From positions 192,651-256,650 of the forward strand of contig JAWKOD010000004.1 in assembly GCA_041391385.1 (NCBI GenBank): a stretch of DNA of 64,000 nucleotides, read 5' to 3'. Position 1 is the first letter of the stretch, and every line of letters begins with the position of its first letter. This stretch comes from Bdellovibrionota bacterium. Lineage in GTDB: Bacteria > Bdellovibrionota > UBA2428. This document shows positions 28,345 to 43,493 of the stretch, one piece after another. The notes under the pieces were generated by a model. That model was not told where the DNA came from, searched no databases, and saw nothing but the letters and a program-made list of their open reading frames with translations. Position numbers and translations under genes: made by a program.

Positions 28345-28967
28345 TCGGCCCGAAGGCAAAACGTGCCGAATTTGTCCTTAAGACGTTAACGAAGCTTTAC
28401 CCTGCACCACCTATTCCCCTTGCACATACCGATGCTTATACACTTTTGGTCTCGGTTCTTTTGTCTGCACAATGCACAGATAAGCGTGTCAATGAAGTGA
28501 CGCCTCACTTGTGGAACTTGGCAAAAGATCCCTTTGCAATGGCGAAGCTTCCAGTAGCCAAAGTAGAGGCAGTTGTGAGGCCTTGTGGATTAGGTCCACA
28601 GAAGTCCAAAGCTATAGTGGGTTTAAGTAAAATATTGATTGATAAACATAACGGCGAAGTTCCACAAAGTTTTGAAGAGCTAGAAGAGTTACCTGGTGTA
28701 GGACACAAAACTGCTAGTGTGGTGATGGCGCAAGCCTTTGGTGTTCCTGCTTTTCCCGTAGATACTCACATTCATCGCTTGGCGAAGCGTTGGAAGCTCA
28801 GCAGCGGCAAAAGTGTAGTGCAAACAGAGCGCGATTTGAAAAAACTCTTTCCCAATGAAACTTGGAACGCTTTGCATTTGCAAATTATCTACTATGGTCG
28901 CGAGCACTGCACAGCACGCGGCTGCGACGGGAAAAGCTGTCTTATTTGTAAAAAGCTAAACGTATAA
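28341..28967 (+). CDS. nth: Endonuclease III
   Basis: HhH-GPD motif (LPGVGHKTASVVM...DTH) and a C-terminal Cys cluster (C-x6-C-x5-C-x2-C). Confidence 0.85.
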   Translation: MIGPKAKRAEFVLKTLTKLYPAPPIPLAHTDAYTLLVSVLLSAQCTDKRVNEVTPHLWNLAKDPFAMAKLPVAKVEAVVRPCGLGPQKSKAIVGLSKILIDKHNGEVPQSFEELEELPGVGHKTASVVMAQAFGVPAFPVDTHIHRLAKRWKLSSGKSVVQTERDLKKLFPNETWNALHLQIIYYGREHCTARGCDGKSCLICKKLNV

Positions 28968-28989
28968 TTTTATTTTTATTGGACGTCTA

Positions 28990-30312
28990 GGTTAAGTCTT
29001 TCTTGGGAACCTTGAGAAGACTTTATTCTAGCCTCAACATCGTCAACGTAGTGGTAGGCTCTGCCGATGATTGAGAGGGCTAAGAATTGATCTTGGATGA
29101 GAAGCAGGCCAAAGCTCTTACGTAGATCATGAATGTTTTCTTTAAATCGTCTTTATATTTTTGAAAGGCGGCTTCTTTTGCGGCTCTTTAAAGCTTCCCC
29201 ATTTTCTTCTGTGCTCATAAGAATTTGCTCGTCAGCATTTCATAAGAGCTGAGGCACATTTATGTTGAAGAGGGCTTTCCTCAGTCGGATCGTAGTTGAT
29301 GGGAGTTGCTTTGAGTGTAAAAGAGCTGTATCTGGCCATTGAAGTTGTTTCGGGAATAGAGAGAAATAGTGTCGTGACTTTTAATGTTTGCGAGACCAGA
29401 GGGAGTTATATTGAGTGAAAGCTTGTTCAGTAAAAGTGTTCGCTGAGAACTGGAGAATCATCTACTTTGGATTTTTTACAAAGTTGTTGGGGTCTGCTGC
29501 AAAGTTGAGGTCGCTTGAAACAAAACTAAGTTCGAGTGTACAGCTCATGGAAGAATTAAAGCTTTGCTCAACGGAATCTCTATGAGATCGCGGATGTCTT
29601 GGGACTTAGGCGCATATCGAAGCTCTTCTCCGTCACAGCTTGTGACTCTTGCTAAATAACGAGTGGGAATTGCAAATGCATTTGGGTCTGAGAGGGCACC
29701 TATCAGGAGATGGCTAGTCGTTTTTATATCGATCCAGAACTTTGAGAGATTGTACTGAGTCCGACTATCTTCAACTCCACATCAGCTGTGGCATCTTTCG
29801 GACTAATGGGTCACAGAAGCTAGCATAGCCGAGTGCAACGTTGGCAATAATAATTGTTTGAGTATTATAGAATCACTGTATGAATAGCGGGGTTACTGTT
29901 TTATGACATCTAGGGGGGACTTTGGCTTTATAGGAGTTCTTGGATTTGATCTGAGACATTTGAGTGCTGGGCATGGTGATTGAGAGTATTCATCCGCACG
30001 ACTGCTTATTTGCAAGAGTGAGTGACAGAGCACTGTGAAGAAACGAATTTTCGTATTGTAGAGTGTATTTTTCATAATATATACTTTCTAAAGGCACCTT
30101 TCTAAAGAAATGGTTTTGAGATTTTATTTCAAAATAGTATTTTCCATCGTCTGATTTTCTGAGATGAAGCACTTGGCTCTGTCGTAGATGAGGCTATCGA
30201 GCCGTACTTTTTTTTCAGCAAGAATTTCTCGGCAATAGAGCAGAGCATCTTTTTAAGAAGAAAAACTTAGGGAATCGGTGAGTCTTGTAGTGAAGGCTGC
30301 TTTCGATGAGTT
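28990..30312 (-). pseudogene. Unresolved decayed coding remnants; no ORF above 60 aa
   Basis: Minus-strand translation yields protein-like stretches in shifting frames interrupted by stops. Examples: ...WIDIKTTSHLLIGALSDPNAFAIPTRYLARVTSCDGEELRY..., ...RFKENIHDLRKSFGLLLIQDQFLALSIIGRAYHYVDDVEA..., DGKYYFEIKSQNHFF... Boundaries are approximate. Confidence 0.4.
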
Positions 30313-30761
30313 TCAGGGACTTTCGCTGAGTTTGGCTACACCCCAAATACTTAACGTATGGACTTCGATTTGTAGAATGTCTTGAGTTTCCCATTTTTTA
30401 GTGGGAACTTTTTTGATAAATTGGGGTTTCAGTAAATCGATAATAACCCCAGTAGTCTCCCTCTTCTTCTCGGCTGAGACCCTTGAATATCCATTTCTCG
30501 CCACGAGTGTAACCTAAAACTTTTTCTTCAATCTCTTTGTGTCCAATTTTGCAGTAAGACATAAAAGTATTTGCGTCTGTTGAGTTCCTTGTATTGAACG
30601 CAAATCCTAAGGCTTCCTCTACACTAAAGCTTTTGTCCGTTTTTGGTAACTGAGTATCAATTGTGGGGATATTCTTGGAAGTGGTGGCTCGTTAGAGGAA
30701 TTTTTGAGCTGCAAGGACGTAGTTACTTAAGAGGAGTGAGGTGAGTAGTTTTTTTTCTCAT
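30313..30761 (-). pseudogene. Decayed small secreted-protein gene (copy C of the tandem set)
   Basis: ATG 30761 is followed by AG + A8. The signal peptide (LLTSLLLSNYVLAAQ) lies in another frame. There is an in-frame TAA after AAQKFL and a further shift at an A6 run. The remaining sequence reads ...GYTRGEKWIFKGLSREEEGDYWGYYRFTE... Confidence 0.5.
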
Positions 30762-31276
30762 TACCAGTACCCCGTCATCTTTCGAATTGCTTTGAGATTC
30801 TCCATTGGGTGCATATCCCTGATTCTGGAGAGCAAACCCCTTGCTTTTTTGAGACGTTCAAGTACAATATTTACTACTTGTACGGTGTCTCTTTCTGTTC
30901 GTCCGTAACTTCGATAGCTATTATTAAAATGATCAGAGAGCTTAATGTCTCCATATATTTGTCAGATCCTCGAATGGAGTAAGCCCTATTGGAGGCATGA
31001 ATATAGCATTTGAGTTTCCGAAGGTTGTATTGATTGAGGCTAAATTCATATCAAGAGAGCCTTCGAACCGTAGGTGAGGCATCAATTCGCACTCCGTTAA
31101 TGGTTAAATTGCTTGTGTTGTTTTGGTATTCGTCATGCCTTGGTGGATAATCCTCCAAGTAAAGCACTCTTCTGGGAGGAGGAGGTGGTGGGGGTGCTTG
31201 ACGTTGCATTCCGTAGCTTGCAGTTAAGGAAAAGTTGCTCAGTAAAACAATAAGATTAAGAGAGTATTTTTTTCAT
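30761..31276 (-). pseudogene. Decayed small secreted-protein gene (copy A, paralog of copy B)
   Basis: ATG 31276 is followed by an A7 run where A6 would keep MKKYSLNLIVLLSNFSLTASYG in frame. There is an in-frame TGA (…PTVRRLS*YEF…) and another shift. It ends …KMTGYW* at TAA 30761-30763. It aligns with copy B through NGV(R/E)IDA…KLKCYI…YS(I/L)RG.DKYMETL…R(T)(E/N)RDTV.V.N…. Confidence 0.6.
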
Positions 31277-31783
31277 TACCAGTACTCGTCATCTTTTGTA
31301 GGCTTTTCTTGGGCTTTTCAACTTCTACATGGTTATTTTCTACATGGTTATTGGGGATGTAGCCTTTTGAGCTTTCAGAGCAAACACCTGCTTTTATAAG
31401 GCGACCGAGCAATAGGTTTGCAACATAGACGGTGTCTCTGTTTGTTCGAGAGCTGGAATACCTTGAGAAATCTGTAATAATATTTCGTTTTAAGGAGGCA
31501 AGTGAGTTCAACGTCTCCATATTTGTCTTTGCCGCGAAGGGAGTATGAATTTCCGTAATCATTAATGTAGCATTTGAGTTTCCATAGGTTTTGCTGGTGA
31601 AGTCTAAGATAGTCGTAAATCCCTGACTGCACGGGCCATGCATCAATTTCTACGCCATTGAGAACGAAAGCATTTCTTTGGGATAGCTTGATTTTTAACT
31701 TTTTTATTAGCTGCAAAGCTTATTGATATAAAAGCACTTAGCAGAATAAAAGCATGGGAGTGTTTTGATACTTTAGTTTTCAT
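31276..31783 (-). pseudogene. Decayed small secreted-protein gene (copy B)
   Basis: ATG 31783 opens the signal peptide MKTKVSKHSHAFILLSAFISISFAA. The frame shifts in an A-rich stretch. Relative to copy A there is a 2-nt (AT) deletion in AAATAT(AT)GGAGAC and a 1-nt loss just before the YW* end. Track ORFs 31375-31716 and 31239-31646 are its two main frames. Confidence 0.6.
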
Positions 31784-31887
31784 TTGCACCTGGAAGTGAG
31801 GCTTTAGCAAAGGGGGCTTTAAGGAGTCTCGGAGAAGTCTGACATTCTGACATTTTTCTTGATGCGCAGCGTAATTTGCTGTAGCTT

Positions 31888-33205
31888 GTGCATGTGAAAA
31901 TACTTCTCAAACTGCTCTCTGTGCTTGTTGTATGTTTTTCGCAAGCATCTGATTTTACAGCCGTTTATTTAACTTTACCACACTCTTCCGATGAGCCTCA
32001 CCCTCTCAATGAAGCACCAGCAAAGCATGTTTCGTGTACGAGTCAGCTCATTAAGGTGGGCGGTAGGTGCTATTTAATAAGTACGGATCATTGTCAGGCC
32101 TCGGGGCATACAAAAGTAGCCTTTACTACGCTAAAGAAAAACAAAATTTAAGTTTAAAAAATCTTCGAAAAGCTCGGCTCTTGATTTGAGAGAGTACGAA
32201 GTCCCTGCTGAGTTGAAGGAAGATTGTGAGGACTTATTACTCAGATAAGCGCATTGTAAGCACAGCGGAAGTTCTTGAACGCAAAGAGCTTTATTCCTTT
32301 AAGTTAAAAGGTTTTGTTAACCATCAGTACAGAGAAGAATTTTCTCGGGAGAAGATTGGGCAAGGTGGTTATGCCTACGCTTACATAGATCTTTTGCCTA
32401 TGGGCGCAGTGGATTGGTTTGAACTTGATAAAGTACAAATGTTTCCCGGAATGAGGCTGCGGAATCCATTCAGGACTCCTTTGTTGGAATATCTTATATC
32501 TACATGCAAGATGTGAGTATCGTTGTGCCCTATGCAAGTATTGTTAGATTTCTTCAAACAAGCGAGCTCACTTCCCTTCGAAGCTCCGGTGGAGCATTCA
32601 TAGTCAAAAAGTTCCGTTCAACCTGCAGCAGATAATCTTAAAGGGTGGTGGCGGGAATGAGCACGCAAGGGTGCGGGCAATGAACATTCCAAGGGCATGA
32701 CTGGTATATAGCTCAGAGGCAGGAGCCGTTACATGTATTAGAGATGACTCAGGAGCCGGATGAAGGGGTCGTTTCTCCTGCAAATTCAAAGCTTAGAATT
32801 TTAGGCATCGATGGAGAGCAGGTAGATGGTTGGGACGACTATAGTCTTTCACGCTCAAGCGACATGTCCAAAGTGCAAGTGATAACACGTGAAAATTCTA
32901 AGGGTTCATACCCAGACCTAAAAATCAGAAAGAAACTACTCGATCGCTTTGATGGTTATTACAGCTCGATTTTAACAATGGAAAGCCAAAAGCATTTGAT
33001 TTTTGTTCCAGATATTCAAAACCCTTTGGGCTGGCGGATTGGTTATAGTGCAATGCCTCTTGTGGATATCAATATTGAAGGTGACACGATAAGCATTAGC
33101 ACAGGCATCCACGGATTTACTCAGAGAGGGCGTGCCGTTCAGGGCTTTTCAAATTCAGATCCCATTCCTAAAATGCAAATGAAGGAAGACATTTTCTTAA
33201 GGTGA
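31888..33205 (+). pseudogene. Decayed secreted trypsin-like serine protease, paralog of 41371-42591
   Basis: Signal peptide VKILLKLLSVLVVCFSQA. The His region reads GGRCYLISTDHC. The remainder is scattered over three frames with stops: ...ALDLREYEVP..., ...YASIVRFLQTSELTSLRSSGGAFIV... (Ser motif). The last 153 codons (32744-33205) are intact. It parallels LTSAHV / ADVDLLEV / YESLIRFNLLSGMSGAPV in the intact paralog. Confidence 0.6.
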
Positions 33206-33564
33206 ACTTTGATCCTGAGTATAAAGCAATGCAGATTTCTGGCAGGCAGTATAATTTAAACTCATTGGGAGATCCTCGAGAGTTTGCACTCTCATGGACC
33301 TGTAAAAATCAACAATACTTAAAGATCATTTGTGAGTCTCGCGGCAATGGCCAACGTTATTCAAATTTAAGTCTTTCAAAGAGTAGTGAAGGAGATCATT
33401 CGGTATTGAGGTTTCGGCTCACTTATTTTGAAACGATTAATCAAGTACCTGTTTATCATTATTACTACGGTATAGCCGTGAAGAGCGTTTCGACTCGTCA
33501 AATGCGAAAGGCTCATTGGAGTACTTTTCCCTATGACAAAAAAGGGAGAACGTTTAAGAAATGA
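33202..33564 (+). CDS. Hypothetical protein, translationally coupled on both sides
   Basis: 120-aa ORF. Its GTG overlaps the upstream stop (GTGA) and its stop overlaps the next ATG (ATGA). No signal peptide and no recognisable motif. Confidence 0.5.
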   Translation: MNFDPEYKAMQISGRQYNLNSLGDPREFALSWTCKNQQYLKIICESRGNGQRYSNLSLSKSSEGDHSVLRFRLTYFETINQVPVYHYYYGIAVKSVSTRQMRKAHWSTFPYDKKGRTFKK

Positions 33565-34745
33565 GAAAAATTTATTCTGAGGCTTACCTTATGGGGATTC
33601 AGGCCTTCATCGATTCAGATTTAGCATCACTTAATAAGTACATTCAAAAAACTGAACACTCCTATGAAAGAAAACTTTTAAAAGTTCGCCAGTACATGGC
33701 AGTCTCAGAAAACTCAAAAGCCTTAGAATTGTGTTTAAGTGTTGCAAGCTTTCCTTTAGCAGCTTTTGCTGAGAAAAACTTCTTGTTGGCAACCTTATAT
33801 TTTTCTAAAAGGTTTTATGAAAAAGCTGCCTATCATGGGTCACTCGCGCTAGAGACTTTTCAGAAATTATCATTACCCGAGCGTATTTTTAAGTCTTACT
33901 ATAATTTGTCAGTCACTTATTCTGAGTTGCGTTGGAATGATATGAGTAAATTGTATTTGGATAGAGCCATTGAGAGTGCTACGAGTACTGAGGATAAATT
34001 AGATGTCATGCGCGCCAAAGCTTGCCATCATTCTGTGAACAACGAGTATCCCAAAGCTAAAGAAGTCTTAAGCGAAATGCAGGAGTTGATTTTAGATCTT
34101 GAAAGCTATGATGTGGAAATGTTCTGGCTCATTGCTTCCGATATTCATATTTGGGCTAAGGAGTATCCTGAGGCTTCGCGCTGTTTATCAAGGATAAAAA
34201 AACGTGTGAACTTTGCTTATAGGGAGCGACTCTTTACTCAGAGAACTTTGCTGGATTTTATTCTTATTCCTTCACAGCCTTTGACACTCCCTAAGCTTCC
34301 TAAGATTTTCACAACAGATTCGGAGTTTTTTCTTCAATTGAGTTTTTTAAGGGCACTGCAAGACGGAGATTTAAGGTCTTCTCAGGCCTTTTGGAATTCC
34401 TTGTGTCAATTGCGTCCACAAGTATATGGGGCTTCTTACGTGTGCCTATCGCATGTTGACAAGCGAAATGCTTTTTTTCAATGCCTTGATAAGTTGAGGA
34501 CTCCATTCATTAAGGCAGGCGAGGTACCCGTTCTTAGTGGAAAGCTTAAAGTTGCTTATGAGTCGCTTTCGTTAAGTCGGGTTCCACTTAGAAAAGAAGA
34601 GTGGATTGAGAAGATATGGGGAGTGCCTTATTCCACCGAGTTTGATTCTCGCTTTTATAAGTTAGTTGAACGCTTAAAGACAAAAATCCCACAGAGTCTT
34701 TTGCAAAAAAACAGGGCTTATATCTTGGGCTCAAAGTATAATTAG
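33561..34745 (+). CDS. Transcriptional regulator: N-terminal TPR-like helical repeat domain plus C-terminal OmpR/PhoB-type winged helix
   Basis: 394 aa. The C-terminus LSGKLKVAYESLSLSRVPLRKEEWIEKIWGVPYSTEFDSRFYKLVERLKTKIP...NRAYIL follows the trans_reg_C pattern (L..E..LL..L......s.e.L...vWg......r.l.v.i.rLRkKi....GY.L). Upstream are about 320 aa of TPR-like helices (YYNLSVTYSELRWNDMSKLYLDRAIE...). There is no receiver domain. Confidence 0.7.
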   Translation: MRKIYSEAYLMGIQAFIDSDLASLNKYIQKTEHSYERKLLKVRQYMAVSENSKALELCLSVASFPLAAFAEKNFLLATLYFSKRFYEKAAYHGSLALETFQKLSLPERIFKSYYNLSVTYSELRWNDMSKLYLDRAIESATSTEDKLDVMRAKACHHSVNNEYPKAKEVLSEMQELILDLESYDVEMFWLIASDIHIWAKEYPEASRCLSRIKKRVNFAYRERLFTQRTLLDFILIPSQPLTLPKLPKIFTTDSEFFLQLSFLRALQDGDLRSSQAFWNSLCQLRPQVYGASYVCLSHVDKRNAFFQCLDKLRTPFIKAGEVPVLSGKLKVAYESLSLSRVPLRKEEWIEKIWGVPYSTEFDSRFYKLVERLKTKIPQSLLQKNRAYILGSKYN

Positions 34746-34753
34746 CTATCGTT

Positions 34754-36010
34754 TTAGTAGAGCAATCCAGCGACAGCCGCCGACATGAGCGTTGCAAGGG
34801 TTCCTCCAAGAACAGCTAAGAAGCCGAGCTTAGCGAGAGTGGGTCGTTGGCTAGGAGCTATAGAGCCCAGGCCCCCTAATTGAATTCCTATGGAAGAAAA
34901 GTTAGCAAAACCACAGAGTGCGTATGATGAAATTATTACACTTCTATCTGAGATCAAGGCACCGTCTTTGGCTAAGTGAACGTAGGCTACAAATTCGTTG
35001 ATCATAACTTTTTCGCCTATGAGCTTTCCGACAAATGTCGCTTCAGACCAGGGTACGCCTAACAACCAAGCAAATGGGCGACACAGGTATCCAAGAATAA
35101 TTGAGAAGCTTAAATTCTCACTGATCCCAAACCAAATACCCAGTTTTGCAATACCCGCATCAACAAGTGCGAGCATTGCGATAAATGCAATCAACATTGC
35201 CGCAACATTAATGGCTAGCTGCACGCCTTCTGAGGCGCCACGCGAGAGAGCTTCAATAGCGTTCGAGTCAGCTTTGACTTCTGGAACTTTAACAAAGTTG
35301 GCAGTTACGGGTTTCCCAGTTTCAGGGATGATGATTTTTGAAACAACTAAGCCTGTAACGGCAGACATACAACTTGCCGTTAAAAGATGCCCCGCAATTT
35401 CTGGAATCCTGCTATGGAGCATACTCACATAAGCAGCTTCTACACCTGCCGCAATGGTGGCCATGCCACCTACCATGATGCAATAAATTTCACTTTTGGT
35501 CATACTGGCTACATAGGGTTTAATAATTAGCGGGGCTTCTGTTTGCCCGACAAAAATATTGGCAGCGCCAGAGAGCGTTTCTGCGCCCGAAGTCTTCATG
35601 GTTTTTTGCATAACCCAGGCAACACCCTTTACGACTTTCTGTAATATTCCAAGATGAAAGAGGACTGCCATTAATCCCGAAAAGAAAATGATTGAAGGAA
35701 GGGCTCTAAATGCAAAGATAAAACCCCAAGGATCTTTTGCTTCTGCGAGTGAGCCAAATAAGAATTGTGAGCCAGCTGAGGTAAATCCAATCACACCCGA
35801 AACAAGTTCGTTTAAAAATTCAAAAACAAATCGAAAAACTCCCGGAATTCCAAATGCTGGGATGCCGAGGAGACAGACTGCAAAAGTTACTTGCAAGAGC
35901 ATTCCCATGGCGACAGTCTTCCAGCGAATAGCTTTTCTATTTTGAGAAAAGGCATAAGCAACGGCTAAAAAGACAAAAATACCCAACACTCCAATTAGTC
36001 GACTTGGCAT
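34754..36010 (-). CDS. nupC: NupC/CNT-family concentrative nucleoside transporter
   Basis: Polytopic, 418 aa. The N-terminus (…LAVAYAFSQNRKAIRWKTV…) and the central region (GQTEAPLIIKPY…) match the CNT family. Confidence 0.8.
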   Translation of the reverse strand: MPSRLIGVLGIFVFLAVAYAFSQNRKAIRWKTVAMGMLLQVTFAVCLLGIPAFGIPGVFRFVFEFLNELVSGVIGFTSAGSQFLFGSLAEAKDPWGFIFAFRALPSIIFFSGLMAVLFHLGILQKVVKGVAWVMQKTMKTSGAETLSGAANIFVGQTEAPLIIKPYVASMTKSEIYCIMVGGMATIAAGVEAAYVSMLHSRIPEIAGHLLTASCMSAVTGLVVSKIIIPETGKPVTANFVKVPEVKADSNAIEALSRGASEGVQLAINVAAMLIAFIAMLALVDAGIAKLGIWFGISENLSFSIILGYLCRPFAWLLGVPWSEATFVGKLIGEKVMINEFVAYVHLAKDGALISDRSVIISSYALCGFANFSSIGIQLGGLGSIAPSQRPTLAKLGFLAVLGGTLATLMSAAVAGLLY

Positions 36011-36149
36011 GAGTCTTGTTTAACTCTAGTTTTGGGAGAAGAACAACTGAGCAATTTTAATCTCAAATTAATTGGATAAAAGCTTCCGTTGCTCAGGGGG
36101 GGGATAAGGGCTAAGTTTTAACTCAGCTGCTCTGAGGCAGACTTGTATA

Positions 36150-37136
36150 ATGTGGAATAATTTTAAGTCTTTTCTTTTTAATTTCGATGCCGAGAAGGTA
36201 CATGATCTGAGCGTAGAAACTATTCTTCGCCTAGGGAATTTGAGCCCTTTGCTCTTAGAGACTGCGTCGGGTCATCGGAGTGACTTGAGTTATCCCGTTA
36301 AGTTTCTTGGGAAAACACTACACTCTCCTTTGGGGCTGGCAGCGGGTTTTGATAAAAATGCGCTCTTGGTGCCTTATCTCCCGGCTCTTGGCTTTTCTTT
36401 TGCAGAAATTGGAAGTGTCACTCTTCGTGCTCAATCTGGGAATACTAAGCCGCGTCTTTTTCGAGGAGATGACGTGCTTTTTAATCGCATGGGATTCAAT
36501 AACGATGGGGCTGAGTGCGTGGCACGTCGCTTAGAGTCATACTCAAATTCTCCTCATTTTTTATTGGGTGTGAATATCGGACTGAATAAAGAGACTCCTC
36601 ATGAAAAAGCTCCCGAAGAGTATGCCGAAACTTTTAAGATACTTTCTTCTTATGGAGATTATTTTGTCATAAATGTGAGTTCGCCAAACACTCCTGGATT
36701 GAGAGATTTGCAAGAAGTCTCGGAAATTGAAAAAATATTTTCAAAACTAAAAGCTCATCGTTCAGACAAACCGCTCTATTTAAAATTAGCCTCAGAAGTT
36801 TCTATAGAAACTCGTGAGGAGTTTTATAGGCGAGCTTCCGAGATGGGCATCGATGGATTTGTACTTACAAACACTCTTAAGGGTGAGAGGGAAGGCCTTG
36901 TTGGAGGCTGGAGTGGAGAGTGCCTTCGCTTACCTGCAAGAGAAGCTTTGCTTCATGCGCGACAACATACAAAATTACCCCTTATTTCGGTGGGGGGAAT
37001 TATGGATGTTGATGAAGCTATTGAAAGGTTGCGTTTGGGTGCAAGTTTAATTCAAATTTATACGGGGTGGATTTTTAGAGGACCACGATTTCCTTCACAA
37101 ATAAATGAGCGTTATGCGCGGGAGTTTTCAAGGTGA
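36150..37136 (+). CDS. pyrD: Dihydroorotate dehydrogenase (quinone), class 2
   Basis: GLAAGFDKN, NRMGFNNDG, NVSSPNTPGLR, and GGI near the C-terminus. Confidence 0.85.
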   Translation: MWNNFKSFLFNFDAEKVHDLSVETILRLGNLSPLLLETASGHRSDLSYPVKFLGKTLHSPLGLAAGFDKNALLVPYLPALGFSFAEIGSVTLRAQSGNTKPRLFRGDDVLFNRMGFNNDGAECVARRLESYSNSPHFLLGVNIGLNKETPHEKAPEEYAETFKILSSYGDYFVINVSSPNTPGLRDLQEVSEIEKIFSKLKAHRSDKPLYLKLASEVSIETREEFYRRASEMGIDGFVLTNTLKGEREGLVGGWSGECLRLPAREALLHARQHTKLPLISVGGIMDVDEAIERLRLGASLIQIYTGWIFRGPRFPSQINERYAREFSR

Positions 37137-37609
37137 AGTTTCACGACAAATCAGTGAAGGATTTTACTCAGGAGCTTTTGGCCGAAGGTCTTGATTCTCA
37201 CAAAATAGCGGAGCTTTTTCATGCAATTGAAGCTCATGAAAATCCGCGTGAGATTTATTGGGAGCGCTCGACATATGAACAGCACTTAAAAAGCGAAGAT
37301 CGCGTTTTCTATACGGAAGAAAAAGGGGAGCTGACTTCATTCATTTTTTATCAGGAAGTTAAGCCTGAGATTGAAGTTACTCACTGGGCCGTAAAACATA
37401 AAGGCTGTGGTGAAGGAGGGGCCGTATTTGGGCTTTTCCTCTCTCAAATAGCCTCTCGTGCCTATAAAATCATATTAGAGTGTGGCGAATGGAATAAGCG
37501 CGCTCTTTATCTTTACGCAGCTTTTCAATTCAATAAAGTAGCCTTTCGCCCTAAGTATTACCGTACAGGTGAGGGTGCTTGGATTCTTGAACGCAGTCAC
37601 AATAGCTAG
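37133..37609 (+). CDS. GNAT-family N-acetyltransferase (probable)
   Basis: 158 aa. The C-terminal half resembles the GNAT motif A/B region (…HKGCGEGGAVFGLFLSQI…NKRALYLYAAFQFNKV). Confidence 0.5.
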   Translation: MKFHDKSVKDFTQELLAEGLDSHKIAELFHAIEAHENPREIYWERSTYEQHLKSEDRVFYTEEKGELTSFIFYQEVKPEIEVTHWAVKHKGCGEGGAVFGLFLSQIASRAYKIILECGEWNKRALYLYAAFQFNKVAFRPKYYRTGEGAWILERSHNS

Positions 37610-37623
37610 TAAGTTTCCTAGCT

Positions 37624-38847
37624 ATGGTAATAGCTAAAAGAGGGTCACTGCCAACAACTCCCCATACTGAGTTTTATTTTATACCGGGAGTTTTGGCGCT
37701 TGAGGAAATTCATGGTTCGTATGGATTTGGGGGGCCCTGGGCTCGTAAAATGCACGTTCGCAAGTATCCGACTGAAGTTAAAAATGAACCTAAAATAGCG
37801 GAATTTAATTTTATTCCAAAAGAGCGCGAGGAAAAAAGTTTACAGCCTTATTTGATACACTCGGCAGATATTCCCTATGAAGGAGATGCGTTGATTTCTA
37901 GGAAGTGTTTGCTTTGGGGGACAAACACAAAGATCTCTATGCTTAAAACAGAAAAGAGTTTTCCTAAGGATAAGTATTTTAGAAATGGCGATGGGCATGA
38001 GATATTTTTTGTTCAAGATGGAGAAGCTCTAGTCTCTACGGAATATGGAGAGCTACACGTTCGCAAGAATCATTATGTTGTTATACCTAAGGGAACAACT
38101 TACAGAATAGACTTAAAAAGTGAAAAGCTTTGGCTTCTTGTTGTTGAATCGAAATTTCTTATCGAGTGGCCTCCTCATTATATGAATCATAGCGGTCAAG
38201 CTCACATGATGGCCCCTATTGTTGAAACTGAAATTAATCTTCCCGAGCTTGGCGCTCCTAAGGATGAACAAGGCGAATTTACTGTTTATGTTCAGCATGG
38301 AGGCGGCCAAGTTACAGAACTTGCTATGTCGCACCATCCTTTTGATGTGTGTGGCTGGGAGGGGGCGCTCTATCCTTATTCTTTTGATATTGCGAACCAC
38401 CACGGCATTGCTCGTGCCATTCACTCGGCACCTCCGCAGCATCAAACTTTTCAGTCAGGTCAGGCGCCTTATTTTGGTTTTGCGATTTGCTCTTTTGTGG
38501 CGCAACCCGAAGGCTGGCATCCAAGAGATGTCGCAGCTCCTTATGCTCACTTTAATGTGGATAGTGATGAGATGATGTTTTTCTCGAATGTTAATTACGG
38601 CGCTCGAAAAAGTGTACTTAAAGAAGGCACAATGACTTTTCATCCTGGAGCTTGCCCGCACTCTCCTCACGGAAATGCGGCTGAAAAAAGTCTCGATGAA
38701 AAGGGCAAGATGAGCTCTCGACTTGCTGTGATGTTGGATACTTTTTTTGAGCCACTTAATGTTTCTCAATATGCCGTTCAGTATTCAGATAAGGAGTATT
38801 CTACAAGTTGGTATAAGGCACGCGAAGCTAAAACGTTGAGTGCTTAA
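37624..38847 (+). CDS. Homogentisate 1,2-dioxygenase-like cupin protein
   Basis: 407 aa. The overall HgmA-like layout includes GHEIFFVQDGEALVSTEYGEL (cupin) and the C-terminal MTFHPGACPHSPHG. The assignment is from pattern memory only. Confidence 0.55.
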   Translation: MVIAKRGSLPTTPHTEFYFIPGVLALEEIHGSYGFGGPWARKMHVRKYPTEVKNEPKIAEFNFIPKEREEKSLQPYLIHSADIPYEGDALISRKCLLWGTNTKISMLKTEKSFPKDKYFRNGDGHEIFFVQDGEALVSTEYGELHVRKNHYVVIPKGTTYRIDLKSEKLWLLVVESKFLIEWPPHYMNHSGQAHMMAPIVETEINLPELGAPKDEQGEFTVYVQHGGGQVTELAMSHHPFDVCGWEGALYPYSFDIANHHGIARAIHSAPPQHQTFQSGQAPYFGFAICSFVAQPEGWHPRDVAAPYAHFNVDSDEMMFFSNVNYGARKSVLKEGTMTFHPGACPHSPHGNAAEKSLDEKGKMSSRLAVMLDTFFEPLNVSQYAVQYSDKEYSTSWYKAREAKTLSA

Positions 38848-38870
38848 ATGATACTTACTTGAGAGAAATC

Positions 38871-39272
38871 ATGACTAAGCATTCTGGATCCTGTTTATGT
38901 AAAAAAGTCAGCTTTGAGTTTTCGGGTGACTTTAAAAAGTTCTTTTTCTGTCATTGTTCTCGTTGTCGCAAGGATTCGGGTTCTGCTTATGCGTCTAATC
39001 TTTTTATAAAAAGCTCAGATTTCAAATGGGTGGATGGGAAAGAATATTTAAAGTCATATAAGGTGCCCGATACTCGCTTTGAAAGCTCTTTTTGTACGGA
39101 ATGTGGATCAAAACTTCCCACCCTCAAGGATGATCATCTTGTAAAGGTGCCCGCAGGATGTCTTGATACAGAAGTTGATTTGACTCCTAACGGGCATATC
39201 TTTATGGCAAGTAAAGCCCAGTGGGAAGATACACTTTGCCGGGCCCAATGCTTTGAAGACTTTCCATCATAA
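38871..39272 (+). CDS. GFA (glutathione-dependent formaldehyde-activating / CENP-V) family protein
   Basis: Cys pattern GSCLCKKV…CHCSRCRK…FCTECGS. ATG 38871 follows GAGAGAAATC. Confidence 0.75.
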   Translation: MTKHSGSCLCKKVSFEFSGDFKKFFFCHCSRCRKDSGSAYASNLFIKSSDFKWVDGKEYLKSYKVPDTRFESSFCTECGSKLPTLKDDHLVKVPAGCLDTEVDLTPNGHIFMASKAQWEDTLCRAQCFEDFPS

Positions 39273-39304
39273 AAGTATTCGGACTTACTTCCTAGTTTCT
39301 GTAC

Positions 39305-39703
39305 TTAGTTTCTGTATCTGGAAACTTTTGAGATGTGTGATTTTTGTGCGTCACAGAGACCAGAACCTATTAATACACTGAGTAAAGTATTGAGGGCAAG
39401 GTTTGCATCTCTTTTGCTTTGACAATAAGCAAGTCGAGCATATCCATATTCTGTCCCATAGCTATCGCTTACATCTATCCAGCCAGAATAAGCATGAAAT
39501 CGTGCTCCTGCCCAGATGGAATTAGGATCACTTGGTTCTTCTAGGTAAGCGACACAAGTTGCCTGAGAAAATGTTTGTTGCTTGAGTCTAGTGCCTTCGT
39601 AACAAGAATAGTCTTCGTAAATGACATTTGCTTTTTTACTTGTTGCAAACAAGTTCGCTGAGATTAAACAGTTAAGGGCTAGGGTAATGGTTAAATTTTT
39701 CAT
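39305..39703 (-). CDS. Small secreted cysteine-containing protein, hypothetical
   Basis: MKNLTITLALNCLISANLFA signal peptide with 4 Cys in the mature part. ATG 39703 overlaps the upstream stop (ATGA). Confidence 0.55.
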   Translation of the reverse strand: MKNLTITLALNCLISANLFATSKKANVIYEDYSCYEGTRLKQQTFSQATCVAYLEEPSDPNSIWAGARFHAYSGWIDVSDSYGTEYGYARLAYCQSKRDANLALNTLLSVLIGSGLCDAQKSHISKVSRYRN

Positions 39704-40080
39704 TCTTCTCCTTTGTCGCAAACGATTTTTCCGTAATCACATTTTAAGACAGGTCCATCGAGCAGGTATGCACCTAGTGCGCCTTGCATACGCGCTGAAC
39801 ACCACGTTTTACATTTATTGAGAGTGTTGTATCGAGCTTCATACTCACTTCGGCCGCCCGAAAGAATTTGCGTAGACGCGTTTCTATTTTGTAAATAAAT
39901 CGCTCCTGCAGATGCGGAGCCACCCGGAATTGTGGAACAGTTCATTAAACAGTAATAAGGGCCTCGAATATGCTGCTCTTGAATTTCACGAGCAACTTTG
40001 CGGCTTCTAGCTTCGGAATGTTGGCTAGCAATGATCCCTGTAAGGACCACTAGAATATAGAATAGTTTTGAGTTTTTCAT
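39700..40080 (-). CDS. Small secreted cysteine-rich protein, hypothetical
   Basis: MKNSKLFYILVVLTGIIASQHSEA signal peptide with 6 Cys in about 100 mature residues. Confidence 0.55.
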   Translation of the reverse strand: MKNSKLFYILVVLTGIIASQHSEARSRKVAREIQEQHIRGPYYCLMNCSTIPGGSASAGAIYLQNRNASTQILSGGRSEYEARYNTLNKCKTWCSARMQGALGAYLLDGPVLKCDYGKIVCDKGEE

Positions 40081-40224
40081 GTCATTTACCTTTCTCTGAG
40101 CGGTATAGGTTGGACATGCCTTAGGGGCGAGTTACATGAGGTTACAAGTGCGGATTCGAGGGGGATTCTCCTTGACCAGTAACGCATTGCGTAATAGCGT
40201 ATTTCCCCAAGGGCTACCTCATTT

Positions 40225-41370
40225 ATGCAAACGACGAATTTTCAAAAAACTCAATGGATTCAGGTGCTTGAGGCCTCTGTCTGTGAGTTGCATAAGTTTA
40301 GCCTTCAGGGCACTCAGAGTAGGGACTTGAGCTCTTATATCCAGGTCTTAATCGCCTATCATGAGTCTAATCTGGAGCGCTTGAGGCTTTATTCGTCTCA
40401 TCAATGGGAGTGTCAGTTTCTTAAGGTCATTTGCGAGTTGCGTTTGGGGATAAGAGAGAAAAGTCTTTCCCCTGAAAAGCTTTTGGCTTTAGCAGATTTC
40501 GTTCAATCTCAGCCTGCTATGAGCGTGCTTGATGAAGTCTTAAAGGGCGAAGCTATTTTGTATGGGTTTTGCGTCTGAAAGTGTTGCGGATTTAACAAGA
40601 GCAATCCATTTACGATGAGGCTGCTAAAATATTCACGCGCAGCATTCTTCAGAAAAGAAAGCTCTGAAAGCTCTGTTTAATTCCCTCGCTTGTAAAAGTC
40701 GAAGTACAGCAGCGGGACGCTATTTAAGTGATTGTTACTTTGTAATTCGAGAGGCGTCACGTTTGGGTGAGTCTTCAGTTGAAAGCATGGCACGGCACAA
40801 TTTGTCGTATGAGTTATTGAAGCTCGGACAACGGAAGAAGCCACTTCACGAAGCTCTACTTGCACTGGAGTTGTGTCGAGATCATTTTGCTAACTTTAAT
40901 GAAGTTCAGATCCGTCTACACCTTGCAGCCTCTTCAAATTGGAGATTACAGCGAAGCCAAGCGCCATATGAGTTTTGCTAAAATTACGGAGTTTCCTGAA
41001 GCATGGAGGCATTGAAGTATTTAGAGAATACTTATCTAGGCGTAACATGTTATTGATTCTTCCAAAATGACCTTTAATTGGCAAAAAGGCTTTTAAGAAA
41101 AAAGCGTCTTTAAGTTTCAAAAAGAGAAACCCTCTTGGAAGAACTGAAGCTTTCAACTCTTGAAAGTCGTTGTCTAAAACAGTTGGCCGAAGGTCCCATG
41201 AAGATAAGTTTATCGATTGCTGGAGTAAATATATGGAAGCAAAGGAAGCTATTTTTCTCTCGAAAACAGGCTTAAAAGTCCTTCTGAATAGATTGCGAAA
41301 AAAGATCCCCAATGAAATTCATTTTTTTAAAGGTCAGTATTTTCTTAAAGATAAAAGTCTTCGCAGTATA
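40225..41370 (+). pseudogene. Decayed TPR + winged-helix regulator, paralog of 33561-34745
   Basis: The span (about 1.15 kb) equals the length of the intact paralog. A 117-aa N-terminal ORF is followed by TPR-like pieces in shifting frames with stops (…GDYSEAKRHMSFAKITEFPEA…). The wHTH is split between frames: …LSTLESRCLKQLAEGP | RSHEDKFIDCWSKYMEAKEAIFLSKTGLKVLLNRLRKKIPNEIHFFKGQYFL. Confidence 0.6.
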
Positions 41371-42591
41371 TTGATCATAGTTTCTCTTCTTGCTGCAAAT
41401 CTCCTGAAAGCTGCTAATGCCTTTCCTGTTATTGATTCTTCACTTCTAAGAGTTTGCTCGCAGTATTCCAATGCTCCTGCTCCAATTTGTGGAGTAGGCA
41501 CTTATGTGCAAAAAGGATCAAAGTATTTTGTTCTAACGAGTGCTCATGTGTCGCATGGAGATTTGGGTCTTTCTGTGGCTTTAATAGGTAATTCCAAAGA
41601 GAGTTTAAGAGTTATTTCTAGAGCATCGAATACATTGGCAGATGTGGACTTGCTTGAAGTTCAAGCGCATCCTTTGCTTAAGGCTCTTTTTGTTTGGGAT
41701 TCATACTATGATGCTTTTGTTGTTCCAGATCTTGAAAAATGGAATTGGCACTTTCTCATTGGGCGATCCAAGATGGAAGATGCACCGAGCCCAATGTGGT
41801 TACATAATCTAGGATGGACTTCTGCTCTCATATTACCAAGCCAGGATCAACGTGTGAGTCCACTAAAGGGTGAAGAGTTTTATGAGCAGTTTTATCCAGC
41901 GCAGGCTGGATTTGAAAACAGAAGAAGTTTTTCTAAAAGCTTAGATCCTTATGAAAGCCTCATTCGCTTTAACCTTTTATCGGGAATGAGTGGTGCACCT
42001 GTCATAACAAGCGTTGCTCAGCCCTTTCACGTAAGACTCTCTTCAATTGCTACACGGGCGCACCGATATTCTCCCTTGAGCTATTTTGCGCTTTTGGATG
42101 ACGTTCTTCCCTCTTTGCTAAAAGGTAAGAGTTTGAGTAAACAACCTCGTTGGAATTTTAGTGAGGGGCTTTTGTGTCGCTCGACTGAGGATGGAACAAG
42201 GGAGGCGGCGCTCGTTGTTAAAGAACGAGGAGATTGGGGGTCTGCTGATGGTGGGGATTGGGGATCTGCCGACGGAGGCGAGGGGAGTGGGCAATCTAAA
42301 CAATCGCTTAAGTTTATGTATAGGGGAGAATCTATCTTGGGGTGGAAGGTTGCAGTATCGAGGAAGCAATCTGTTTTCTTTCATGGAAGTTTTTCTAATT
42401 ATAGAAGTCTCGAGCGTGAAAATCTTTTGAAGAAAGCCGTACCCATCTCTCTTGGATCTAAGCTAGTTTTTGACCCTTATTGGAGAACTGAGCTGTCACT
42501 TGTCAATGAAAGTGACGATAGTCTTAGCTTTAAAGACAATAAAGTAACAGTTAAACTTGCACGTGAAAAAATATCTTTCTACTTTAAATGA
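41371..42591 (+). CDS. Secreted trypsin-like (S1-type) serine protease with a C-terminal extension; start uncertain
   Basis: Signal-like LIIVSLLAANLLKAANA. Triad candidates are LTSAHV (His), ADVDLLEV (Asp) and LLSGMSGAPV (Ser). The ORF is open from 41170 because it runs in frame with the remnant of the upstream regulator. There is no ATG, and in-frame TTG 41371 is the best start I could find. Confidence 0.65.
   Translation: MIIVSLLAANLLKAANAFPVIDSSLLRVCSQYSNAPAPICGVGTYVQKGSKYFVLTSAHVSHGDLGLSVALIGNSKESLRVISRASNTLADVDLLEVQAHPLLKALFVWDSYYDAFVVPDLEKWNWHFLIGRSKMEDAPSPMWLHNLGWTSALILPSQDQRVSPLKGEEFYEQFYPAQAGFENRRSFSKSLDPYESLIRFNLLSGMSGAPVITSVAQPFHVRLSSIATRAHRYSPLSYFALLDDVLPSLLKGKSLSKQPRWNFSEGLLCRSTEDGTREAALVVKERGDWGSADGGDWGSADGGEGSGQSKQSLKFMYRGESILGWKVAVSRKQSVFFHGSFSNYRSLERENLLKKAVPISLGSKLVFDPYWRTELSLVNESDDSLSFKDNKVTVKLAREKISFYFK
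42229..42276 (+). repeat. 2 x 24-nt imperfect tandem repeat inside the protease gene (GDWGSADG x2)
   Basis: GGAGATTGGGGGTCTGCTGATGGT / GGGGATTGGGGATCTGCCGACGGA. Confidence 0.85.
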
Positions 42592-42802
42592 GCAAGGAGC
42601 TTTAAGTGGTTCTGTTTTTAATCCCATCATTCGTGTCGGTGGACGAGTGATTGATATTACAGAGCTATACTTCTTAGAAGCGTCATTTAGAAGGCTTCTT
42701 AGTGGTGAGGAGCTGAAGGCTTCCTTCACCACTAATGCTCTTAGGTTTTCTGTGCAAAAACGAGTTTTGATTGGCAATCGAATTGTAAGTTGGCAGCTCG
42801 CT

Positions 42803-43381
42803 TTATGACGTCCAGTAGAGATCATTTGTATTCTCAAAGGCCCAATCCATCATACTAATTCCTATGGGCATCAAGACGATAGTCACGCAAAATAAAACTC
42901 CAAACATGGCCATGAACATGTAAATTGGATTTCTCATTTCAGCTTCTTTGTTTGAAGAAGCTAGCTTGTCTTCGAGGTAGCGGATTTCTTTTTCTTCGTT
43001 TTTAAGGATATCAGCTCGTGATTTTCGATAAATACTTCTACGTTCGTCTTGAATTTTACCTAGAAGTTTTTTGAGACGAGGAAGCTTTTTGTCATCTTCA
43101 CCCGTAAGGTTAATTTTTTGAGCGAGTTCTGTAGTGGCATCATAGAGCTTCCAATCATAGGTATATTGCAATTGTTCTTGGCTCAATCTTTTGTGTTTTT
43201 CGTGCATCTCTTTGATGTCGCTTACGGTATCTCGTAATTGCTGTATCTTTTCGAGTTGAGCAGTGCTTGGGAAACTCGCTCTTAAATTTGACTTTGCATG
43301 AAGTGGGAGACACATGCTTTGTAGGACTATGCTGCTCAGTAGGACATTGGCAGTTAACTTGTATAGAATACCTTTTTTCAT
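42803..43381 (-). CDS. Hypothetical protein with a signal peptide, coiled coil and C-terminal TM helix
   Basis: 192-aa ORF. N-terminal signal peptide, charged helical middle, and a hydrophobic MFMAMFGVLFCVTIVLMPIGI near the C-terminus. Confidence 0.55.
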   Translation of the reverse strand: MKKGILYKLTANVLLSSIVLQSMCLPLHAKSNLRASFPSTAQLEKIQQLRDTVSDIKEMHEKHKRLSQEQLQYTYDWKLYDATTELAQKINLTGEDDKKLPRLKKLLGKIQDERRSIYRKSRADILKNEEKEIRYLEDKLASSNKEAEMRNPIYMFMAMFGVLFCVTIVLMPIGISMMDWAFENTNDLYWTS

Positions 43382-43493
43382 TTTATTGCACCTCTATGTG
43401 GGAAGCTAATCGCGCTTAGAGGAAAATTCGAGTTACATTAGGTTAGAATATTTTTCTGGACTAGCAGCGAGTGATTTTTTGATACAGACGTAA

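Follow-up and report, generated by a model that had tools for sequence, protein, structure and literature searches.

RRNPP regulators (Rap, NprR, PlcR, PrgX), in which a TPR-type superhelix is joined to a DNA-binding domain, occur in Firmicutes and their phages. SARP/BTAD-TPR regulators (AfsR-type, from actinomycetes) combine an OmpR-type winged helix with TPR modules and act as pathway-specific activators that bind direct repeats. Among trypsin-fold proteases with the catalytic order His-Asp-Ser are HtrA, DegS, DegQ and MarP (Rv3671c), the last of which is also membrane-anchored. ToxR, CadC and VtrA are ToxR-like membrane-bound one-component regulators (PMC9214523, PMC5430869). The DNA analysed here, referred to as the window, is a 64 kb stretch of the genome of a Bdellovibrionota bacterium (contig JAWKOD010000004.1, positions 192,651 to 256,650), and statements on surviving copies apply to those 64 kb. 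It carries two broken loci in which a trypsin-like protease is paired with a regulator made of TPR-like helical repeats and a winged helix; the subfamily of locus 1 is termed A-type and that of locus 2 B-type. Judged from the sequences of relatives, the protease and the TPR-like winged-helix regulator are a real, conserved and previously unnamed pair, and the window probably holds two decaying members of this unnamed module family, working along the lines of the mechanism proposed below.

The protease and regulator were adjacent or fused in 4 of 4 A-type contexts (window locus 1, L001, L002/L003 and L004) and in 6 of 6 verifiable B-type relatives (contexts compared: L006, L007, L008, L009/L010 and L011/L012). 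In A-type cassettes the protease precedes the regulator, the protease stop overlaps the regulator start, and the intact upstream protease is a single gene of 583, 585 or 609 amino acids (aa) (L001; L002/L005, from an uncultured Bacteriovoracaceae metagenome-assembled genome (MAG); L004); the regulator on the 3.1-kb contig L004 is incomplete. In B-type relatives the two parts stand either way round or form one polypeptide, as follows.

P0036: intact 874-aa fusion, on 6 contigs; ~330 aa of helical repeats, winged helix, hydrophobic helix, protease
P0014: 711-aa fusion; shorter N-terminal part with winged helix, then protease
L008: 378-aa regulator upstream of the protease
L007: protease upstream of a 537-aa regulator that has two winged helices
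L011/L012: protease upstream of a 383-aa regulator
L009/L010: fusion P0014 upstream of a 386-aa regulator
P0013: probably regulator, then protease
L013: contig too short for the arrangement to be read

The B-type regulators are homologous to each other (E 1e-25 to 1e-51), and 4 of 4 matched TPR_1 at E <= 0.1 (best 1.8e-4), one with a score of 15.7 bits against a cut-off of 27.8. The L007 regulator (L007:3017-4630) has its winged helices at ~302-367 and 465-529, its relatives being 378-386 aa long, and the L009 locus (L009:5001-8298; L010) likewise contains two winged-helix copies, one in P0014 (~175 aa with the winged helix, membrane helix, protease) and one in the full-length 386-aa regulator. 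Word-indexed protein searches returned 2-3 relatives for the A-type proteins but failed to find any for the locus-2 protease, for which an exhaustive search was needed, and a scan of genome contigs for related loci recovered the L002 genome alone. The module family occurs in Bdellovibrionota and Bacteriovoracaceae metagenomes; it carried no annotation in the sources searched, and a literature search found no description of the protease-regulator pairing. An earlier note on this DNA, made from its letters alone, had proposed that the two protein families belong together and that intact cassettes should be sought in relatives; both proposals hold: in each relative that could be verified the two genes either adjoin, the stop of one overlapping the start of the next, or are fused, and intact cassettes are present in L001 and L002 (A-type) in addition to the B-type pairs and fusions.

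Comparison with the described systems showed partial likeness in each case. The ToxR-like layout, with an OmpR/PhoB-type winged helix, one membrane helix and an extracytoplasmic domain in a single polypeptide, is found in the intact P0036 and P0014 and is inferred for locus 2, which is in frame across these parts but has a broken N-terminal half. ToxR and CadC, however, begin with the winged helix, whereas here a TPR-like domain of ~330 aa precedes it; the outside domain of ToxR-like proteins is a ligand-binding sensor, whereas here it is a trypsin-fold protease with an intact triad; most members of the present family are split into two genes; and no ToxS- or VtrC-like partner was seen in this comparison. 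The likeness to RRNPP regulators lies in the joining of a TPR-type superhelix to a DNA-binding domain, but the domain order is opposite (repeats first and DNA-binding domain last in the present regulators), the RRNPP partner of the TPR part is an XRE-type helix-turn-helix, or a phosphatase 3-helix bundle, instead of a winged helix, and the structural match is weak (template modelling (TM) score ~0.5, E 7e-4) and generic for TPR arrays. RRNPP signalling relies on extracellular proteolytic peptide processing, and in the present family the constant neighbour in the genome is a secreted protease; no conserved small open reading frame (ORF) resembling an RRNPP peptide gene was noted beside the cassettes, no search having been aimed at one. 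In SARP regulators the winged helix is N-terminal, as opposed to C-terminal in the present regulators, no BTAD domain was detected here, and taxon and partner genes differ. In its split form the system looks like a pathway-specific activator whose target gene lies next to it. Because domain order and DNA-binding type do not fit, the regulators are not members of RRNPP or SARP. HtrA, DegS, DegQ and MarP gave the top Foldseek matches and weak PDB sequence matches to the proteases, which share their fold and His-Asp-Ser order but lack PDZ domains and stay under every curated cut-off; period-8 Gly-rich repeats, a family-specific C-terminal domain and obligate pairing with a regulator are unique to the proteases described here.

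Locus 1 consists of an operator-like repeat, a broken protease gene and an intact regulator gene.

31841..31853, plus strand: A-type tandem direct repeat GACATTCTGACAT, within the 78 bp that separate a divergent broken operon from the protease gene
31888..33564, plus strand: A-type trypsin-like protease pseudogene, collinear with the intact 583/585/609-aa relatives, with GTG start at 31888
33561..34745, plus strand: intact A-type regulator of 394 aa (reg394), TPR-like helical repeats and C-terminal winged helix, from homology, AlphaFold2 (AF2) and Foldseek

A profile of the intact relatives matched 31885-33561 in order across frames 1, 2, 3, 2, 3, 2, 1, with at least 6 frame changes and at least 1 stop, and a frameshift-aware alignment of the locus-1 protease with a relative gave 203 identities in 568 columns. 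The frame changes lie near 32122, 32219, 32461, 32621-32707 and 33195, and the stop at 32134. The change at 32461 splits the catalytic motif FPGMSGG after its fourth residue (locus 1 reads FPGM, then R) and thereby destroys the Ser motif, and those at 32621-32707 sit in the region coding for Gly repeats. In the A-type relatives GALHC, LDL and FPGMSGG are kept as the His-Asp-Ser triad, with H68, D99 and S190 invariant, and are followed by GENEHGKG repeats of period 8. The 120-aa ORF at 33202-33564 aligned with residues 460-564 of the 583-aa relative, and is therefore the C-terminus of the protease and no separate gene.

The regulator gene of locus 1 starts in an ATGA overlap with the upstream ORF, with GGGAG 12 nt upstream, and its product is identical to R3A80_08150 (MAG: Bdellovibrionota bacterium). 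It aligned over its full length, at 40% identity, with P0002 and P0003, its 2 close relatives among 5.8 billion proteins. The AF2 model (predicted local distance difference test (pLDDT) 70, predicted TM score (pTM) 0.50) comprises an all-helical hairpin array at 7-311 and a winged helix at 328-389 (helices 328-338, 345-353 and 359-375, strands 380-383 and 386-389; pLDDT 82-91), that is, three helices and then a beta-hairpin wing as in OmpR/PhoB-type domains; the AF2 model of P0004 shows the same wing at residues 29-38. Foldseek returned TPR superhelices as the best PDB matches, including Rap 8rte_B (E 7e-4, TM 0.50/0.55), and also NprR (4gpk) and MalT domain III. As far as the model can be trusted, the likeness to Rap and NprR is generic TPR similarity, and peptide sensing by the repeat domain is offered as a hypothesis only. 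The score against Pfam TPR_8 was 19.8 bits (cut-off 25.7), and the C-terminus of reg394 gave no match to Pfam Trans_reg_C.

Locus 2 has the opposite fate, with a broken regulator half and an open protease domain.

40130..40147, plus strand: B-type operator-like repeat AGTTACATGAGGTTACAA, ~80 nt upstream of locus 2
40225..41352, plus strand: broken B-type regulator half, at least 5 frame changes and several in-frame stops; collinear profile matches in frames 1, 2, 3, 1
40198-40575, frame 1: B-regulator profile positions 2-105, E 5e-10
40628-40978, frame 2: B-regulator profile positions 150-227, E 1e-10
41229-41288, frame 3: B-regulator profile positions 340-356, E 0.006
~41250-41360, frame 1: winged helix at the start of ORF 41170-42591, B-regulator profile positions 345-382, E 6e-5
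41353..41421, plus strand: hydrophobic membrane or signal-anchor helix KSLRSILIIVSLLAANLLKAAN, in frame with winged helix and protease; corresponds to AF2 helix 41-62 of P0004
41422..42591, plus strand: B-type protease domain, Gly-rich repeats and first part of the C-terminal domain in an open frame, from profile, AF2 and Foldseek
42566..42571, plus strand: A6 run at or beside the frameshift that truncates the protease ORF; frame 1 homologous to ~42551, frame 2 from ~42569
42548..42808, plus strand: out-of-frame continuation of the protease, frame 2 profile match, motif LNEQGALSG..FNPIIRV..VIDITELYFLE

Because no stop interrupts the single frame that runs from the winged helix through the hydrophobic helix to the protease, locus 2 is, on its sequence, best read as a single fused gene (40225-42808, ~861 codons) that would encode helical repeats, winged helix, membrane helix and protease, the order of the last three being the same in the intact fusions P0036 and P0014. 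A frameshift-aware alignment of its regulator half with L008_378 gave 29% identity over 393 columns, and the repaired winged helix scored 17.7 bits (E 0.0039) against Pfam Trans_reg_C, whose cut-off is 26.2. A B-type profile from which the window's own sequence was excluded matched the protease ORF at E 1.7e-57 (profile positions 5-373). The exhaustive search yielded 31 remote homologs (24-38% identity, 464-874 aa), and the B-type homologs share a signal peptide, the motifs SHVSQG / DxExIEV / GMSGAP, RW..G.TYR and a VDL..LFF C-terminal domain; H105, D137 and S253 are invariant in 32 B-type sequences, the window protein included. The AF2 model of the locus-2 protease (pLDDT 72.8, core blocks 80-97) showed a double beta-barrel, and the 50 best listed PDB matches in Foldseek (probability 1.00, E ~1e-5) all had a trypsin-fold domain and were proteases in nearly every case, HtrA, DegS, DegQ, MarP and factor XI among them. 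The Pfam Trypsin_2 cut-off (27.6) was not reached by the window protein (14.3 bits) or P0007 (13.1 bits), and P0005 gave no match. In both protease subfamilies Gly-rich tandem repeats of period 8 directly follow the protease domain (GDWGSADG, GNGTSGDA, GGSGASVD, GENEHGKG), at ~42214-42285 and 32640-32700 in the window and also in relatives P0008-P0035, P0005 and P0007, and their number differs between relatives.

All close B-type homologs extend 100-150 residues past the stop of the window ORF, and the lost part was recovered in frame 2, where the profile that leaves out the window's own sequence matched the continuation at positions 423-475 (E 0.0092 in a set of 2527 six-frame fragments), next to the ORF and collinear with it. 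The frameshift was mapped to within ~10 nt of the A6 run, and recent mutation, slippage or faulty assembly could each account for this lesion. The NCBI annotation places R3A80_08195, a 452-aa 'hypothetical protein' starting at ATG 41233, within ORF 41170-42591. A GGAG (41222-41235 region) lies 7 nt upstream of that ATG, and thus an internal start could still express a membrane-anchored protease from the broken gene.

These alignments bear out part of the earlier reading of the individual genes. The intact 394-aa regulator was confirmed by its end-to-end alignment with P0002 and P0003, the breakage of the locus-1 protease over several frames by the collinear multi-frame profile matches, and the breakage of the locus-2 regulator by collinear B-regulator matches over 40225-41340, while the 120-aa ORF, which had been listed as an element of its own, was absorbed into the protease gene. 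Of the regulator segments cited for locus 2, 'LKVLLNRLRKKIP...KGQYFL' had been read correctly, but 'SHEDKFIDCWS' stands in a non-ancestral frame, the ancestral reading at that site being '..LLE*IYGSKGSYFSLENRLK' in another frame. The locus-2 protease, described as intact, does have an open domain with His, Asp and Ser kept, but its C-terminal motif lies out of frame at 42548-42805. The statement that the segment keeps exactly one working copy of each partner was consequently too strong, since the locus-2 protease is frameshifted before its most conserved C-terminal motif.

The two loci are, as judged by profile comparison, ancient relatives from two deeply diverged subfamilies and not the result of a recent duplication. 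Direct comparison of locus 1 with locus 2 by tblastn, blastp and small-family hidden Markov models found nothing beyond chance, hhalign of A1 against the locus-2 protein gave 0.9% probability, and frameshift-aware alignment of the loci with 60 shuffles each did not rise above chance, a negative control scoring as well. Profiles of the families, by comparison, were related in the protease domain (hhalign 76% probability, E 2e-5, 216 columns) and in the winged helix (75% probability, E 3e-5, 53 columns), and BLAST of L009_386 against reg394 gave 4e-5. Both families have the period-8 Gly-rich linker and the protease-regulator pairing, while no relation was detected between the C-terminal domains of A and B proteases, and gene order is opposite between A-type and locus 2, which is a fusion. 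As the homology is remote, visible via profiles only and divided over two subfamilies, the loci are not products of a duplication around the housekeeping block that separates them. Paralogy had earlier been said to be visible directly, yet direct similarity is at chance level and homology appears only via the profiles of relatives; the protease alignment offered for it was mis-registered, YASIVRF standing after GMSGG in the A family and YESLIRF before GMSGA in locus 2. The old segmental duplication postulated with it finds no evidence, given the diverged subfamilies, opposite order, one fusion and unrelated C-terminal domains.

The operator-like repeats differ between the two types. The A-type repeat GACAWTCTGACAT is invariant upstream of four A-type cassettes although their proteins are only 31-40% identical; each A-type protease gene of L001 to L005 has a single copy upstream, the B-type loci have none, and in the window it is found solely at 31841-31853, 35 nt before GTG 31888. 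A second copy with one mismatch lies exactly upstream of the 201-223-409 operon of secreted proteins in L001 and L002, a pattern expected of a site bound by an OmpR/PhoB-type regulator that controls both operons, for which we infer the repeat to be a candidate. For the B-type repeat, a near-identical 23-mer is found upstream of the L008 regulator, no clear common motif was seen in L006, L007, L009 and L011, and a search of the window gave 2 matches against 0.29 expected, the second being the following.

43431..43448, plus strand: second B-type repeat copy AGTTACATNNNGTWACAA, 1 mismatch, 50 nt upstream of the 192-aa gene at 42803-43381 on the minus strand

That 192-aa gene may be part of the same regulon. 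The half-sites are alike, TGACAT in the A-type and TTACAT in the B-type, and the spacing is 8 nt in the former vs 10 nt in the latter.

Decay was uneven within each locus. At locus 1 the protease is dead and the regulator clean, with at least 7 lesions in 1.68 kb vs 0 in 1.18 kb (Poisson P ~0.007, our own estimate), and at locus 2 it is the regulator half that is dead, the protease domain being clean, with at least 8 lesions in 1.1 kb vs 1 in 1.47 kb (P ~3e-4, our own estimate). These densities argue for selection keeping the locus-1 regulator and the locus-2 protease domain after loss of their partners; they support non-random decay, but do not imply that the survivors work together. Frameshifts and stops relative to intact orthologs, within collinear similarity, were found in the locus-1 protease, the locus-2 regulator half and the genes resembling those for the 223-aa and 409-aa secreted proteins, and ~7 kb of pseudogene sequence surrounds locus 1 and locus 2. 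A general cause in an alternative genetic code or in programmed frameshifting was rejected, as the genes nearby have ordinary reading frames and many of the lesions are stops.

Were the frameshifts sequencing or assembly errors of the MAG, all four parts would be intact. The MAG source, the position of the locus-2 C-terminal shift at an A6 run, and a relative whose Logan assembly and MAG differ by one G in a G5 run that splits the protease can all be attributed to such errors; but more than 15 lesions are clustered in three stretches while ~60 other ORFs of the window, those between the loci among them, are undamaged, most lesion sites lie outside homopolymers, several are in-frame stop codons, and the catalytic-serine motif of locus 1 is itself disrupted, which makes this explanation very improbable. 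The non-homopolymer sites, the stop codons and the intact genes between the loci render genuine pseudogenes much more likely than errors, as far as the sequence can tell. The relative concerned is the Logan contig L003, where positions 620-2378 equal MAG L002:8244-10001 except for one extra G in the G5 run of the Gly-repeat region; the extra G splits the L003 protease into 270 + 325 aa and may be an assembly error or mark a slippage-prone off-switch tract. If the A6 run and the G runs of the Gly-repeat region were slippage switches, the locus-2 protease would be made in part of the population by phase variation, and the frames on both sides of the A6 run are indeed open (1.2 kb and 0.26 kb); the G5/G6 length variant in the Gly-repeat region of the L002/L003 protease may, to judge from the accession names, come from one study. 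A6 is, however, short for efficient switching, each tract is a single example, and assembly error accounts for both tracts equally well, so that phase variation here is rather improbable.

A different history, in which locus 2 was originally two genes, regulator then protease, and a stand-alone protease outlived its upstream regulator, would agree with L008 and probably P0013, where a separate regulator overlaps the protease gene start in the same order, as well as with the GGAG 7 nt before ATG 41233 and with the 452-aa protein annotated by NCBI from that codon. We regard it as unlikely, as the winged-helix frame continues without a stop into the hydrophobic helix and protease, no start codon lies just 5' of the hydrophobic helix (ATG 41233 being inside the winged helix), and in length and charge the junction resembles those of P0036 and P0014, both intact fusions. 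The earlier note had proposed that the cassettes are paralogs by segmental duplication that decayed reciprocally, with the locus-1 regulator and the locus-2 protease cooperating in trans. Decay is indeed complementary and uneven, both regulator families have a homologous winged helix, the protease families are remotely homologous, and the repeat half-sites are similar; yet the loci lack direct similarity above chance, have opposite gene order with one locus fused and unrelated protease C-terminal domains, and the locus-2 protease itself carries a frameshift. Furthermore, complementary loss is expected by chance in 1 of 2 cases when two modules each lose one part, and the A cassette of relatives adjoins a different operon and not these housekeeping genes. 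Because the repeats differ between the types, in spacing among other things, and the A-type repeat is absent near locus 2, trans-complementation is somewhat disfavoured on sequence grounds, and the model as a whole appears quite doubtful.

The reading of the window as two decaying members of one module family, with the mechanism proposed below, has several points against it. Confidence in the reg394 model is moderate (pTM 0.50), and the window proteins fall below the Pfam cut-offs for Trypsin_2, Trans_reg_C and TPR. The lesion-density argument presumes uniform neutral decay from one starting time, and in a sequence from a MAG the A6 frameshift could be an assembly error. L008 and P0013 have separate regulator and protease genes in the order of locus 2, whose ancestor could thus have been two genes with the stop lost later. 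The B-type repeat is clearly common to the window and L008 only, and DNA binding by the regulators is predicted from the conserved repeats.

The surroundings of locus 1 extend the parallel with its relatives. Downstream of the regulator, L001 and L002 have an operon on the minus strand that encodes three proteins with signal peptides (201/205, 223 and 405/409 aa), and broken counterparts stand in the window divergent from the protease gene.

28979..29781, minus strand: broken homolog of the 405/409-aa secreted protein, L001/L002 profile in two frames, matches at 28979-29152 (E 4e-12), 29465-29605 and 29548-29781
30127..30691, minus strand: broken homolog of the 223-aa secreted protein, profile in three frames, E 1e-4 to 8e-4, tblastn E 2e-7
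30700..31810, minus strand: fragments of broken ORFs, including a signal peptide at 31810 and an internal repeat, from three-frame translation

The pieces at 30700-31810 are possibly the first gene of the secreted-protein operon; the profile of the 201-aa gene had no match in the window. Their internal repeat reads LNGVxIDA ... KLKCYI ... RGxDKY. No ORF of at least 110 aa was present in 28967-31239. The A-type cluster comprises five genes, of which the window keeps the regulator alone intact, and in relatives the A-type cassettes adjoin this secreted-protein operon and not the housekeeping genes. Elsewhere intact ORFs densely fill the window, 28967-33564 and 40225-42808 being the exceptions. 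Between the loci nupC, pyrD, HGO and GFA, named earlier as a housekeeping block, were confirmed by Pfam, whereas the GNAT gene assigned to the same block had no Pfam match at E <= 0.001. Two overlapping small ORFs with signal-peptide-like N-termini (39305-39721 and 39700-40080 on the minus strand, 138 and 126 aa) lie between the GFA gene and locus 2 and gave no match in a Pfam search. Pfam and NCBIfam searches of window proteins gave sub-threshold matches only, and promoter and terminator scans found fewer sites than in shuffled sequence.

In each module the protease part is a trypsin-fold serine protease destined for export, which has a signal peptide or a membrane anchor, the triad, a period-8 Gly-rich linker and a C-terminal domain, and the regulator part is cytoplasmic, with TPR-like helical repeats and then an OmpR/PhoB-like winged helix. 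In the mechanism proposed here, the regulator would bind the tandem direct repeat in its own promoter, which for type A is also found upstream of the secreted-protein operon, and would thereby control the protease together with the secreted proteins regulated alongside it; its helical repeats would serve as the sensor, with peptides as a possible ligand. For fused proteins, membrane attachment of the winged helix would resemble that of ToxR and CadC, and the protease domain would lie outside the cell membrane. The clean locus-1 regulator and the clean locus-2 protease domain would have been kept by selection after the death of their partners, in which case each can do something useful alone. 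More tentatively, the loci could be relics of an undescribed signalling device of predatory Bdellovibrionota, in which a TPR-winged-helix transcription factor and an exported trypsin-fold protease always go together, linked either through coupled translation or through a fusion that crosses the membrane, and in which protease activity or substrate engagement outside feeds back on the secreted-protein regulon, for example via peptides sensed by the repeats; the fused form would then be a ToxR-like regulator with an active protease as its sensor. We hold this last step to be possible but doubtful.

The interest of the loci rests more on the family, the fusions and the conserved operator than on reciprocal decay, for which the case is weaker than first proposed. 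For annotation, R3A80_08195 is to be seen as a fragment of a larger broken gene. The natural fusions act as a Rosetta stone, in that a single membrane helix separates their DNA-binding domain from their protease, and the conserved candidate operator makes the regulatory idea directly testable. The pair is found in predatory bacteria, where secreted hydrolases are central to prey attack, and if the pairing is functional it would be a new way to wire an extracellular protease to a dedicated transcription factor.

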